A DNA stretch of 17,520 nt from an uncultured archaeon (GTDB lineage: Archaea; Asgardarchaeota; Jordiarchaeia; Jordiarchaeales; Jordiarchaeaceae). A program made the translations under genes and the position numbers. This document shows, piece after piece, positions 2,787-11,119 of the stretch. The first letter of the stretch is position 1, and each line of letters starts with the position of its first letter. The notes beneath the pieces are model-generated. The model ran no database searches. It was given only the letters and a program-made list of their open reading frames with translations, and was not told the origin of the DNA. The DNA is taken from the NCBI GenBank assembly GCA_964510585.1, contig CAZECW010000167.1, positions 1 to 17,520 on the forward strand, given 5' to 3'.

Positions 2787-3416
2787 TTATAGGGTTATTG
2801 CGTTGAGTCCCTTAGTTTTATTCCAGTTGTAGAAGAAAATGAAACGCTTCAGGGAGAGAGCGTCAGGTTCGGTTTTTTCGGTTAGTTTTTTGTACCTCTT
2901 TAGGAAAAAGTTCTCTGTGTTTTTTGGAAAGACGAATGCCATGCCTGAAGTTATGTTGAAATCTTTAAATGGTAAAAGCCTGGTGAATATCAGTAGGCCT
3001 GGGTCAGCTGTTCTACTAAAATTGATGTCCAAGAGTTTTATGTCTTTTTTATCGTTCAAAAGGTCATATAAAATCACCGTGTTTTCCGACGGCAAGACAG
3101 AGACAATTTTGAATAGAGATGTGTAAGATGAAAGTAGAGAGTCTAGAAGCTCTTTTTCCAAATCGTTTTTCCATCCAAACTTCTCCCTGTAAATCTGGAC
3201 GGCGTTCTTTGTACCAGACTTGTACTCGTTAAGCGCAAAATCCATCAAAACATTCATGTCCTCCTCCCTATGAAATACAAAAACACCCTGTCTCAAAATG
3301 CCAAGCAACGTTCCTGATTCATTTAACGCCCTCTCACTAAGAGCACGCCTCATTATTTTGTCGCATAATCTTTGTCCTACTTCCCTATACCTTTTATAAT
3401 CCCTTATCAGAGCCAT
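2787..3416 (-). CDS. Conserved hypothetical protein (209 aa, MALIRDYKRYR...)
   Basis: Long protein-like ORF. The probable start is ATG 3416; the 54-codon upstream extension in the ORF track runs through the remains of the pseudogene. The C-terminal beta-rich segment 'YTSLFKIVSV...TRLLPF...SG' resembles SEC-C-associated hypothetical proteins (recalled, unverified). Confidence 0.7.
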   Translation of the reverse strand: MALIRDYKRYREVGQRLCDKIMRRALSERALNESGTLLGILRQGVFVFHREEDMNVLMDFALNEYKSGTKNAVQIYREKFGWKNDLEKELLDSLLSSYTSLFKIVSVLPSENTVILYDLLNDKKDIKLLDINFSRTADPGLLIFTRLLPFKDFNITSGMAFVFPKNTENFFLKRYKKLTEKTEPDALSLKRFIFFYNWNKTKGLNAITL

Positions 3417-3519
3417 AAAAAATAATCCCCTAACGATTTCACTAAAAGCACATCTACCCCCATTATTTATTCCTTTTGGTAGCTTGGACGTAATTAAGTC
3501 CCCCCGCACTTCTCCTCGC

Positions 3520-3913
3520 TTTTTTGGCTTATTTGTATATTTTTCGTTGAGGTTTGCTAGGACTTTGCTGAATGCCAAGTTGAGATCTCCCCTATTTTTA
3601 ATTGGGGCGTCCCATTTAATTCTCGCAGCTTGCTGAAGGGTTGGAATAATTCCTTCTCAAATTCTTTTTTTCCTTTTTCTTATTCGTCTTCCCCCCTCTC
3701 CAGTGATTTCGAGCTCTTTTTTCTAAGCGTGAGCAAATTGTGAACCACAGTGTGTTGAACAATCTGTTTCCTCACTTCCCTATTTTCAATCTCTTTAAAC
3801 CTGCTGTTGACTTGAATTTCATAACCCCCTTCAATTTCAATTTTGATTCTGCCCTTCTCTTCACATACAGCAATAGGGCCTCAACATCAATATCCACACT
3901 TAGAGGATTTATT
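3520..3913 (-). pseudogene. Decayed, 5'-truncated paralogue of the 10559..11119 gene
   Basis: Minus-strand fragments INPLSVDIDVEALLLY / EIQVNSRFKEIENREVRKQIVQHTVVHNLL / EFEKELFQPFSKLRELNG / PIKNRGDLNLAFSKVL align to INKLNMDIDVEALLLH / EIQINNRLKEIENKEVRKQIVQHTMIHNLL / EFDEEVFQRFNKLRELNG / PIKKREDLDLAFAKIL. There are about four frameshifts and one GAG>TAG. Confidence 0.9.
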
Positions 3914-4145
3914 GTGAGCTACCTTACCCCTAAAGGGTTTTTGGCTCCCTGCTTCAATGATGAGGCTTGCTGGTACTTCTACCAGTAGAGGCTTCATCTC
4001 GACAGGCGAATCAGGGATACCCCATCCCTTCATGAAGTGAACACATGTCTGGGACGATATATGTCCCCTTTTGTATGGAGATATCATTATAAACCTAATG
4101 TTCGCTCTCATCCCGCCAATAAATGGTGTGGGATTTCCCGCTCAC
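3914..4145 (-). mobile_element. Miniature non-autonomous IS200/IS605 (IS1341-like) element A, about 230 bp, TnpB-less
   Basis: On the minus strand it begins GAGCGGGAAATCCCACACCATTTATTGGCGGGATGAGAGCGAAC (left-end-type hairpin). It ends GCCTGTCGAGATGAAGCCTCTAC...GAAGCAGGGAGCCAAAAACCCTTTAGGGGTAAGGTAGCTCAC, the typical tnpB-tail/right-end pattern with a TCAC terminus. Pseudogene homology starts immediately after TCAC. Confidence 0.75.
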
Positions 4146-4149
4146 AATG

Positions 4150-4467
4150 TTGACATTCTCCTCAGCTAAAGCTTGGAGATTCCTGCACACAGCTTTTTTC
4201 ACTGCTATGGAATATATATGTGGCAGCATTTGTCCGTTTCACCGTTTGGATGCTATTTGCAGGGGCTGTGCCACCGTTGGTGGCTTCTTTTGGAGAATTT
4301 TTCCAAAAAACAAGCCCTATTTGCTTGAGCGCTAATCTTCCCAGTTTCGGATGGGGGGGCTTATTTCGGCCTTTTTAGAAGGCCATCCACATCAAAACCC
4401 TTTATCCAAAATTCTTATTTTAACCCTTCCACAATTCATCCCGAGGCTAAAACCATAGGCTTGTCAA
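4150..4467 (-). mobile_element. Miniature non-autonomous IS200/IS605-type element B, about 320 bp
   Basis: Minus-strand left end TTGACAAGCCTATGGTTTTAGCCTCGGGATGAATT, resembling the AAGCCCACGGCTTTAGCCGTGGGATGAAT pattern. Right end CAGGAATCTCCAAGCTTTAGCTGAGGAGAATGTCAA, a hairpin with a TTTA loop and TCAA terminus. No transposase ORF inside. Confidence 0.7.
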
Positions 4468-4700
4468 GTATTATGTAAAGAAGCTCTATTTGAGGACTCC
4501 TCTTGTTGTATGGGGGAAAAGTAGGGTAGGTTGAAAAACTACACACTTAAAGGCAACTTGAAGTCCATCCGAAGATGTTCTCTTGCAGTTTGCACGAAAA
4601 ATTCTTCGTATTTTTGGTTGGTGGAGATTGGTTCGAGTTTGCCTCATTTTTGGGCTCTACGTGGGAGAAGATTCTTGAATGCATTTTCTTTGGTGGATAA

Positions 4701-4760
4701 AAGAAGCCGCGTCTCCTCCTCATAAACTAAGTGCCATTGACTTGTGGAGGAGAATGTCAA
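4701..4760 (+). mobile_element. IS200/IS605-type right end of a third remnant (element C; left end unresolved, possibly ~4470)
   Basis: AAGAAGCCGCG, then a TCTCCTCC(4712-4719)...GGAGGAGA(4746-4753) stem, then ATGTCAA. It shares GAGGAGAATGTCAA with the right end of element B on the opposite strand. Confidence 0.6.
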
Positions 4761-4968
4761 AGAATAAAACCAACCAAAGAGGGGAGTTGGTTTCTATCAG
4801 TGTAGGAATGTTGGGTTCTGCTCCTCATTTCGGGGTTCTAAATTGAGGAAGCCTTTTTACTAAGCGCCGATTTTGGATGCGAAATCGAACAATTCCATGT
4901 CGCCGAATTTTTTCCTCAACGATAGATTCAAAAGGAGGAGGAAAATAACTAGAAAATGAGGGCTAAGA

Positions 4969-5850
4969 ATGAATTTGTGTAGGGAAGATGTTGAACTATT
5001 CTACAAGTTGTATCACCCTTTACTAATCTATGTTAACAGGAAGTTTAATATCGCAAGTGGTGTAGAGTCCATAAAAGATTTCAGAGACTTGGAGGAAATA
5101 GTTGCAGTTAGAGATAAGCTGTTTGAGAATCCCAAGTTAATTGACTCATTTGTTAGGGAGAATCCATACAGATTTTCAAAAGAAGAGTTGAACATAATTC
5201 TTGACTGGAAAAACTTTGTTAAAGATGAATTTGTTGTTTACCGCTATTTGGAGAAATACACCATTTTTCTTGACACAGGTGAGCCACCCAAGGCTTACGG
5301 GGTTCTTGGACTTAAATCTCCCCTTAAAGATATTCTTGGGCCCCATCTGCCAATAATGACCAAAGCAGTCCTCCTCCCCTTCAAAGGCAAAATTATATAC
5401 GACAGTCTCCTCGTACCATACAATGTAATTTTTGGCCCCGGCATGCGCCGCAGCTTTAACGAGGCATACCAAGAAGCTAAACATAGGTTCGGCATCATCA
5501 CCTCACTCCCCTTCTCAGCCAAAGAGGAGAGAAGCGACATTGAAAAACTGAAATTCTATCTAAAAAGTGAAAGCAACCGCGAGAAGTACTGGGAAGAAAT
5601 AGAAGAGCTAATCAGTAAGAACCAAAACCTCCTAAAAATCTACTACCAAGAAATGGGCAAAATACAAGCCAGAACAATTGGAAAAAGGCTACGCGAAATC
5701 GGCATCGCTCAAGGATGGTTCGCTATACTCGAAAACGAAATCATTGCCAGCGGAATAACAAGGGAGGAAACTGAGAGAAACGCCCACCGCATAGTCCCAC
5801 CAGAAAAAAAGGATTTCGTCTACATATTCCAACTAAAAGAGAAAAAATAA
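4969..5850 (+). CDS. Conserved hypothetical protein (293 aa)
   Basis: Long ORF with a GAGG SD and protein-like composition ('AVLLPFKGKIIYDS'). No catalytic motif recognised. Confidence 0.85.
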   Translation: MNLCREDVELFYKLYHPLLIYVNRKFNIASGVESIKDFRDLEEIVAVRDKLFENPKLIDSFVRENPYRFSKEELNIILDWKNFVKDEFVVYRYLEKYTIFLDTGEPPKAYGVLGLKSPLKDILGPHLPIMTKAVLLPFKGKIIYDSLLVPYNVIFGPGMRRSFNEAYQEAKHRFGIITSLPFSAKEERSDIEKLKFYLKSESNREKYWEEIEELISKNQNLLKIYYQEMGKIQARTIGKRLREIGIAQGWFAILENEIIASGITREETERNAHRIVPPEKKDFVYIFQLKEKK

Positions 5851-10496: not shown

Positions 10497-10558
10497 TTAA
10501 TAAAAAGGAATGAGTAATTGTCGAATTTTTTTGACTGGTTCATTTATGGTGGGTAAAT

Positions 10559-11119
10559 TTGGCTGAATTTGAGGGTGAATGTTCAGAGTGGCTTAATGAG
10601 TGTTTGAAGGTGTTTCCAGAACTGGGAAAAAAATACGTTGCAATCGCTAGGTACTATCGGCTTCCTAAAAAAATGTTAAGCAGAATCAGAATAAATAAGC
10701 TAAACATGGACATCGACGTCGAAGCCCTACTACTACATGGAGAGAGCAAGCCAGAATCCAGAATAGTACTAAGAGGGTTCTGCGAAATTCAAATCAACAA
10801 TAGGCTAAAAGAGATTGAAAATAAAGAAGTGAGGAAGCAGATTGTCCAACACACCATGATTCACAACCTGCTATACGCAGAGAGAAAAGACCTTGAAACC
10901 ACGGGAAAAAAGAAGGGAGCGAAGCAAAAAAAGAAAGACGAAGAAGAATTCGATGAAGAAGTATTCCAACGCTTCAACAAACTACGAGAACTAAATGGGC
11001 TCCCCCCAATCAAAAAAAGAGAAGACCTCGACCTAGCATTCGCCAAAATCCTAACAAAACTAGATGAAACAATCGCTCAAAAAACAAAAACCACCAAAAA
11101 GCCAAAAGCAAAGAATTAA
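10559..11119 (+). CDS. Hypothetical protein, zincin/SprT-like with a degenerate HExxH motif (HNLLY) and a Lys-rich tail
   Basis: 186-aa ORF with TTG start after GGTGG. Coding is supported by a diverged paralogous copy at 3520-3913. 'EIQIN...IVQHTMIHNLLY' occupies the position of the zincin helix. Confidence 0.75.
   Translation: MAEFEGECSEWLNECLKVFPELGKKYVAIARYYRLPKKMLSRIRINKLNMDIDVEALLLHGESKPESRIVLRGFCEIQINNRLKEIENKEVRKQIVQHTMIHNLLYAERKDLETTGKKKGAKQKKKDEEEFDEEVFQRFNKLRELNGLPPIKKREDLDLAFAKILTKLDETIAQKTKTTKKPKAKN

Follow-up and report, generated by a model that had tools for sequence, protein, structure and literature searches.

Introduction

The question raised by a 1.39-kb stretch of archaeal DNA devoid of long ORFs (window positions 3579-4968) is whether a compact succession of hairpins on its minus strand is a gene for a guide RNA or a remnant of a transposon. 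In TnpB systems such as that of ISDra2 from Deinococcus radiodurans, the omega-RNA scaffold overlaps the 3′ end of tnpB together with the right end (RE) of the element, and the guide is taken from the DNA flanking the RE. The window, i.e., the whole 17,520-nt stretch of DNA that was analysed, is contig C167 of a metagenome-assembled genome (MAG) of 3.78 Mb in 217 contigs with 96% completeness. A sequence-only reading of this DNA interpreted positions 3914-4145 as a miniature TnpB-less IS200/IS605 element with its own TATA box, the RNA of which could be used in trans by TnpB encoded elsewhere; a sequence check found all the motifs that it listed in the places where it had put them. The best explanation, to which we assign a probability of roughly 0.85, is that the minus strand 4148..3914 represents a discrete 235-nt TnpB-less, protein-less and non-autonomous derivative of the IS200/IS605 family, PATE-like and close to what is called a “stand-alone omega-RNA” locus, the present status of which is probably that of a dormant orphan.

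Genomic setting and boundaries of the element

The stretch harboring the element is bounded by a 263-codon gene on the minus strand and a 293-codon gene on the plus strand, and a tRNA scan revealed no tRNA. Contigs of three hot-spring metagenome runs reproduce window positions 3000-4303 without any difference, hence the arrangement is not an assembly artefact; the matching DNA in such metagenomes points to a hot-spring Asgard archaeon as the host, and one of the three runs may be the source sample. Among the contigs of four metagenome runs inspected over window positions 3000-5500 none joins across the element, so that no empty-site variant was detected at the depth that contigs can reach, rare variants being beyond it.

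The extent of the element was defined by homologies of its flanks. Multiple sequences homologous to window positions 3540-3917 and, separately, to 4149-4289 are found in genomes of the same genus; similarity to a paralogous gene starts exactly at 3913, the base after the RE terminus, and similarity to the family of the adjoining element X stops at 4149. Thus the element occupies exactly 4148..3914, i.e., 235 nt (Table 1), which preserves the core of the span proposed earlier and moves its outer boundary from 4145 to 4148. The boundaries are sharp and no direct repeat flanks them. The pentamer TCAAC directly 5′ of the left end (LE) has TTAAC or TTGAC as its counterparts in the family, the consensus at this place being TTTAAC in 10 mini copies of genome G032 and in full-length elements and TTGAC in locus L060.

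Table 1. Coordinates of the 235-nt element, its parts and its immediate neighbours in the window
Feature	Position	Strand	Remark
Mini-element X	4149..4482	-	copies elsewhere in the genome; head-to-tail with the 235-nt element
TAM-like pentamer TCAAC	4149..4153	-	directly 5′ of the left end; last bases of element X
Left end (LE)	4100..4148	-	aligns to LEs of full-length and mini elements
TATA box TTTATAAT	4086..4093	-	positional alignment with the family box
Remnant of deleted tnpB	4030..4085	-	translation compared with P0001
omega-RNA scaffold and right end (RE)	3914..4029	-	full-length match to covariance model R1, 92 bits
P1	4028-4024 with 4018-4014	-	GGGAT/ATCCC
P2	3998-3991 with 3966-3959	-	one A.C mismatch
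P3	3985-3980 with 3975-3970	-	CTGGTA/TACCAG
P4 outer	3944-3943 with 3923-3922	-	
P4 inner	3938-3935 with 3929-3926	-	
Terminus, plus-strand reading GTGAGCTAC	3914-3922		minus-strand form GTAGCTCAC
Putative guide flank AATAAATCCTCTAAGTGTGG	3894..3913	-	also start of the interrupted pseudogene
Frameshifted pseudogene	3520..3913	-	paralogue of the intact gene 10559-11119

Element X is a second and unrelated TnpB-less IS200/IS605 derivative, the RE of which adjoins the LE of the 235-nt element. Its terminal TCAAC resembles the TTAAC/TTGAC motif preceding the LE in the family of the 235-nt element, and X-family copies in genome G003 end at ...GTCAAC (GAGTGTCAAC) and then diverge. At least six copies of X are present in the genome (contigs C40, C47, C20, C186, C9, and C107), and since both its LE and RE resemble those of a tnpA-tnpB element on contig C81, X, unlike the 235-nt element, has a plausible cognate TnpB in this genome. 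The guide of the X omega-RNA would now coincide with the first bases of the LE of the 235-nt element.

Homologues of window positions 3540-3917 encode a protein family of ~180-200 aa, an intact copy of which is present in the window at 10559-11119 on the plus strand. With the 200-aa protein of relatives as a query, tblastn gave 92% identity at 10544-11080 and 48-54% identity in two frames at 3862-3522. The missing N-terminal part of the pseudogene was searched for upstream of element X and was not found there, and no true empty site was found at the orthologous locus in genomes of the same genus. As a separate observation, the pseudogene (3520-3913, minus strand) and its intact paralogue (10559-11119, plus strand) form an inverted pair around a Snf2-SWIM block; in genomes of the same genus the family has multiple copies, and an HExxH-like motif (MIHELLH) occurs in some of its members.

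Genomes G003 and G004 diverge from the window leftwards of position ~4750. In genome G002 (L111, G002:C96) the 263-codon and 293-codon genes have orthologues that lie side by side in the same orientation, only 60 nt apart, whereas in the window the 263-codon gene (2787-3578) is inverted and 1.39 kb of sequence with IS relics separates the two; this comparison suggests a rearrangement at the relic cluster. Another repeat of ~100 nt lies at window positions 4798-4895 and has copies on contigs C148, C191, C100, and C94 with 74-83% identity.

Left end and promoter

Window positions 4154-4086 align with the family LE throughout, and thus the hairpin indicated in the sequence-only reading at the left end (plus strand ATCCC 4110-4114 and GGGAT 4130-4134) is present and is that of the family. 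On the minus strand it is formed by ATCCC 4134-4130 and GGGAT 4114-4110 with an inner CCA/TGG stem, and inspection by eye shows it kept with compensating changes in L015, L092, and other loci. When window positions 4168-4062 were aligned with the LEs of nine full-length and three mini elements, the flank, the hairpin, the conserved GGGATGAGAGC motif, which the window LE contains, and the TATA box appeared in common; the features held in common with TnpB-only elements of other archaea are the TTTAAC flank, the hairpin, GGGGATGAGAGCC, and the TATA box. Upstream of TnpB-only members of the family the LE reads TTTAAC followed by GGCGGGAAGTCCCC-loop-GGGGATGAGAGCCGAAAAGTATTTATA at ~50 nt before the tnpB start, and window positions 4154-4086 read GTCAAC followed by GCGGGAAATCCCAC-loop-GGGATGAGAGCGAAC...GGTTTATAA. 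Positions 4100-4151 are also matched by metagenome contigs of other context, which diverge beyond this interval, and a genome-wide search for the LE core motif returned unrelated matches only.

The minus-strand TTTATAA at 4093-4087, which had been regarded as the element's own TATA box, does exist and aligns in position with TATTTATA / GTTATAA of full-length and mini elements; in the family this box is situated ~50 nt upstream of the tnpB start codons. Since the LE aligns with those of full-length elements, the box is not an acquisition of the element itself; it is the conserved tnpB promoter of the parent IS, inherited with the LE and retained upon the deletion of tnpB. Judging from this correspondence it may well serve as a promoter, although the BRE upstream of it is degraded as compared to that of the family (GAAAAG). 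An oligo-T terminator is not obvious after the guide.

Right end and omega-RNA scaffold

A covariance model (R1) derived from tnpB 3′ ends of a family that is widespread in archaea matches window positions 4029-3914 over its full length (model positions 1-129, E 5e-20), the intact element of genome G041 scoring 107 bits with the same model. This match is the only one in the whole genome, as is the match of an nhmmer profile to the same positions (E 4.8e-19). BLAST comparison of the 235-nt element with 60 relatives gave matches confined to its 3′ ~100 nt, the best of them being the 3′ end of an intact 377-codon tnpB ORF in G041 with 83% nucleotide identity. Altogether, window positions ~4030-3914 align with 30+ tnpB 3′ ends from Bathyarchaeia, Methanomethylicia, Hadarchaeia, Archaeoglobi, and others, all of which terminate in GGGGTAGTTCAC and then diverge completely, the window counterpart being AAGGTAGCTCAC; the very terminus reads GTAGCTCAC in the element and GTAGTTCAC in the family. 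The alignment to IS200/IS605 right ends anticipated by the sequence-only reading was thus obtained both with the family REs and with the covariance model, and the guide start that it had proposed, AATAAATCCTCTAAGTG, is indeed the flank after the RE terminus, the family diverging right after ...TTCAC.

All four covarying stems of the family are kept in the window scaffold. P1 (GGGAT/ATCCC) is a compensated variant of the family GGGYY/RRCCC, P2 keeps seven of its eight pairs, and P4 is a two-tier hairpin, as in G041, and is weaker in the window. Among the stems listed earlier, AGGGAT 4013-4018 / ATCCCT 4024-4029 on the plus strand is overlapped by family P1, CTGGTA/TACCAG 3970-3985 corresponds to family P3, and the terminal hairpin ACCC-CTAAA-GGGT (3926-3938, plus strand) is present as well. 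The stem GGGAC 4051-4055 / GTCCC 4063-4067 also exists, but it is non-conserved, lies in the leftover of the deleted tnpB and has to be removed from the scaffold, while the longest conserved helix, P2 (3991-3998 with 3959-3966), was absent from that list. The upstream omega-RNA helix P0, which full-length copies have in the part of tnpB coding for ...NASLNIL..., is lost from the 235-nt element.

Base pairing was counted in 31 sequences over five helices (20 pairs), with the structure specified by hand on alignment A3, where window P1 is one column out of register and its pairs were checked by eye. The share of paired cells amounted to 94.3% as compared to 83.8% in shuffles (none of 500 shuffles reached it), cells changed on both sides numbered 84 against 30 in shuffles, and sliding of the 3′ partners as a control left 38-57% of cells paired; in family P2 double changes are found at six of the eight pairs. 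RNAalifold applied to the first MAFFT alignment (A2), with the variable hairpin misaligned, had given a poor consensus and was superseded by the A3 counts. Folding of the single RNA sequence 4065-3914 was not significant (-48.4 kcal/mol, z = -1.86, 8 of 200 shuffles as good), and the LE and RE folded as DNA no better than shuffles, so that the case rests on comparison with related sequences. Rfam provided no family match to the window at gathering thresholds, and a permissive E-value gave only chance-level matches (E above 1) within 3800-4600. On this comparative ground the scaffold at 3914-4029 is intact-looking, and since neutral decay over a long time might be expected to cause more damage, this may reflect a recent insertion or continued use of the RNA.

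Remnants of tnpB

Neither a transposase nor a TnpB gene is present inside the 235-nt element, which contains only a 74-codon ORF composed of TnpB fragments. Translation of 4030..4085 reads ...KRGHISSQTC... compared with ...PRGTSQEY... in P0001, the TnpB of genome G041; a further TnpB piece between promoter and scaffold reads ...PVEMKPLLVEVPASLIIEAGS... versus ...PVEMKPLLAIPASIIIETGS..., and positions 321-365 of the TnpB family profile match window positions 4078-3941. The interval separating promoter and scaffold thus translates to pieces of TnpB, which shows an internal deletion of tnpB. The hairpin 4051-4067, which is not conserved, falls in the remnant, as does the transcription start predicted near 4064, and a Pfam search revealed no domain in the 74-aa ORF or in the remnant. 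With LE and RE homologous to those of full-length elements, clean boundaries and a covarying family structure, the assignment of this locus to miniature TnpB-less IS200/IS605 derivatives with a 3′ omega-RNA scaffold holds.

Parent TnpB family and its mini-elements in other genomes

P0001 (375 aa) is a genuine and compact TnpB (NF040570, 216 bits; PF01385, 86 bits) without the CxxC zinc finger, and TnpBs of this parent family occur together with Y1 TnpA or alone. Forty-nine further loci encoding its relatives (L057-L105) were revealed in Bathyarchaeia, Methanomethylicia, Alkanophaga, Hadarchaeia, Archaeoglobi, Thermoplasmata, and others. The family is spread across many archaeal phyla and is found, too, in a few MAGs labelled bacterial (Patescibacteria, WOR-3), with 50-76% identity; such distribution suggests frequent horizontal transfer or mis-binning.

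The scaffold model matches 50 of 151 sampled Asgard genomes, several of them having 20 or more copies, and the best matches, taken one per genome, split about evenly into those that end a tnpB ORF of at least 340 aa and those that do not. In G032, an Asgard genome of 1.3 Mb and 93% completeness, at least 12 mini-element copies were detected by BLAST and 19 by the covariance model. These copies (L012, L016-L026; for instance, L016:1420-1600) are ~200 nt long and comprise TTTAAC, the LE hairpin, BRE/TATA, and the scaffold; they are conserved with sharp limits at both ends and most strongly over the promoter and scaffold, and protein and profile searches found no P0001-type TnpB in G032. The closed Asgard genome G021 carries the family tnpB as a frameshifted pseudogene beside tnpA (478195-478557; whole element G021:C1:478195-479692; L125, L128, L131, L141, L149), broken into three frames with one TAA but with a well-scoring scaffold of 104 bits, and a mini copy is found elsewhere in that genome (L015).

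Search for a cognate TnpB, further copies and guide targets

Homology searches by blastn, nhmmer, and the covariance model together with a motif search revealed no other copy of the LE, RE or scaffold in the genome. The element is therefore single-copy, and the further copies that the sequence-only reading proposed to look for are not there. The only tblastn match of P0001 in the genome is the window's own fragment, and a family profile of 12 sequences (A4) gave a single 31.5-bit match to a distant TnpB homologue on contig C204. The genome possesses five TnpB loci and four Y1 TnpA matches, but the five resident TnpBs have zinc fingers, unrelated C-terminal tails and right ends, and belong to other families. 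A tnpB with matching ends exists among relatives and not in this genome as assembled, the nearest intact cognate TnpB lying in another Asgard genome (G041); partial relatives of the family were found by profile at contig ends of the same-genus genomes G002 and G004. Since the MAG is incomplete (96%) and fragmented (217 contigs), and MAGs often lack repeats, the assembly could have failed to capture a cognate tnpB, and its absence is not proven. The guide (3913-3894) has no second TAM-flanked target in the genome; near-matches on contigs C76, C175, and C157 were rejected as chance ones, being unrelated coding sequence without TAM.

With no cognate TnpB, second copy or matching ends in the genome, the 235-nt element is most likely a dormant orphan, and the proposed use of its RNA in trans by a TnpB of this organism is not borne out. 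Most likely the family became extinct in this lineage or was never established there, as far as the assembled sequence tells.

Proposed history and alternative readings

In the simplest history X would have inserted into the pseudogene first, and the 235-nt element would then have inserted at the terminus of X. An internal deletion removed nearly all of the parent tnpB (~1 kb) while keeping the LE, with its TnpA-type hairpin and the TATA box of the tnpB promoter, and the last ~116 nt, where in the parent the omega-RNA scaffold and RE overlap the tnpB tail. The product lies directly after TCAAC and in front of the pseudogenised paralogue of 10559-11119. If transcribed from the LE promoter, with a start near 4064 and read-through from the scaffold into the flank, it would yield an omega-RNA of ~170 nt with a guide beginning AAUAAAUCCUCUAAGU; with a cognate TnpB such RNA would be expected to direct cleavage of the empty site, i.e., a TTAAC-like motif followed by the guide match, and thereby favor retention of the element.

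A different course of events, which we consider possible but clearly the less probable one, is that a full-length IS copy decayed in place, with deletions arising after insertion and the intact ends surviving by chance. The single copy in the genome is compatible with it, mobilisation and in-place deletion being indistinguishable from one copy, as are deletion junctions that the mini copies of G021 (L015) and G032 do not share and the crowding of the 1.4-kb stretch with other IS remnants and a pseudogene. Yet ~1 kb of coding sequence was lost with the LE, promoter and every scaffold helix spared, and the same layout of LE, promoter and scaffold recurs independently in G032 and G021; moreover, decay in place differs from the main explanation in history only and not in the present nature of the element.

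The 235-nt element is probably not an active trans-guide gene. That it operates as a stand-alone omega-RNA gene used in trans by an unassembled cognate or by a divergent resident TnpB, for example, that on C204, is unlikely. Its scaffold appears undamaged, with a score in the same range as those of elements that have a functional tnpB, the TATA box has stayed where the family has it, the partial relatives in G002 and G004 imply that the TnpB family has been in the genus, and use of stand-alone omega-RNAs in trans is documented elsewhere (PMC10055086, PMC10691335). Against this, neither tblastn nor the profile identified a cognate TnpB in the genome, the resident zinc-finger TnpBs have unrelated tails and right ends, the covariance model finds no second scaffold, and the guide is without a second TAM-flanked target in the genome. 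Slightly more doubtful still is a broader proposition, in which TnpB-less omega-RNA mini-elements driven by the LE promoter are widespread and sometimes amplified in Asgard archaea, G032 being one example, persist without a cognate TnpB, and the window copy is a working member of this population and not a relic; if it were true, a divergent or exapted TnpB-like protein might make use of the RNAs of mini-elements, or these might have a TnpB-independent role. Finally, that the ATG-initiated open frame of 74 codons at 4111-3887 is a real small protein gene with incidental stems is hardly credible, because deletions have pieced it together from fragments of TnpB and it lacks any Pfam match, the TATA box lies inside it downstream of its ATG, stops are seen directly in the equivalent frame of relatives' mini copies, and conservation tracks RNA pairing, not codons.

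Comparison with known systems

Interpreted as a dormant TnpB-less derivative, the locus offers a cleanly delimited Asgard IS200/IS605 mini-element keeping promoter, omega-RNA scaffold and guide, together with a covariation-supported omega-RNA model for a widespread zinc-finger-less TnpB clade without an Rfam family; for annotation, a 1.4-kb “empty” intergenic region turns out to be stacked transposon relics inside a pseudogene. It raises no new question, since PATEs and stand-alone omega-RNAs are known and the partner nuclease is apparently missing in this genome. The notion of a “programmable ncRNA locus” put forward in the sequence-only reading is likewise not new as a concept (PMC10055086, PMC10691335): TnpB-less omega-RNA elements and trans-acting stand-alone omega-RNAs are already published, and one more example is described here.

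PATEs were first described and named in Haloquadratum walsbyi (PMC3119063); PATE-like protein-less IS200/IS605 elements were reported by Meers et al. in Geobacillus stearothermophilus, and PATEs often encode omega-RNAs needing TnpB in trans (PMC10055086). Like them, the 235-nt element is short and protein-less, is bounded by LE and RE of the IS200/IS605 (IS1341-type) family and carries an omega-RNA region; in both cases movement presumably needs TnpA in trans and RNA-guided cutting would need TnpB in trans. Unlike them, it resides in an Asgard host and descends from a TnpB clade without the zinc finger, it has one copy only, neither a cognate TnpB nor matching ends were detected in the genome, and its head-to-tail neighbour is a second PATE, from another family.

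Stand-alone omega-RNAs, devoid of effector and transposase, are stated to act in trans in genomes that also possess effector loci (Altae-Tran et al., 2021, as summarised in PMC10691335). As they are depicted there, they share with the 235-nt element a scaffold with its guide next to it, the lack of an effector gene and an evident origin from a mobilised transposon end, and differ from it in that no compatible effector is detected in the genome of the latter.

Full-length IS605/IS1341-type elements with a P0001-like TnpB (for example, G041:C210 and L058-L092) possess a homologous LE (TAM, hairpin, and promoter), a homologous RE with scaffold and the same terminus, whereas ~1 kb of tnpB (with tnpA where present) and helix P0 are missing here. 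The arrangement of scaffold and guide would follow the same principle as that of the ISDra2 TnpB omega-RNA. Thus, in every structural feature tested by sequence comparison, the 235-nt element fits the PATE / stand-alone omega-RNA kind.
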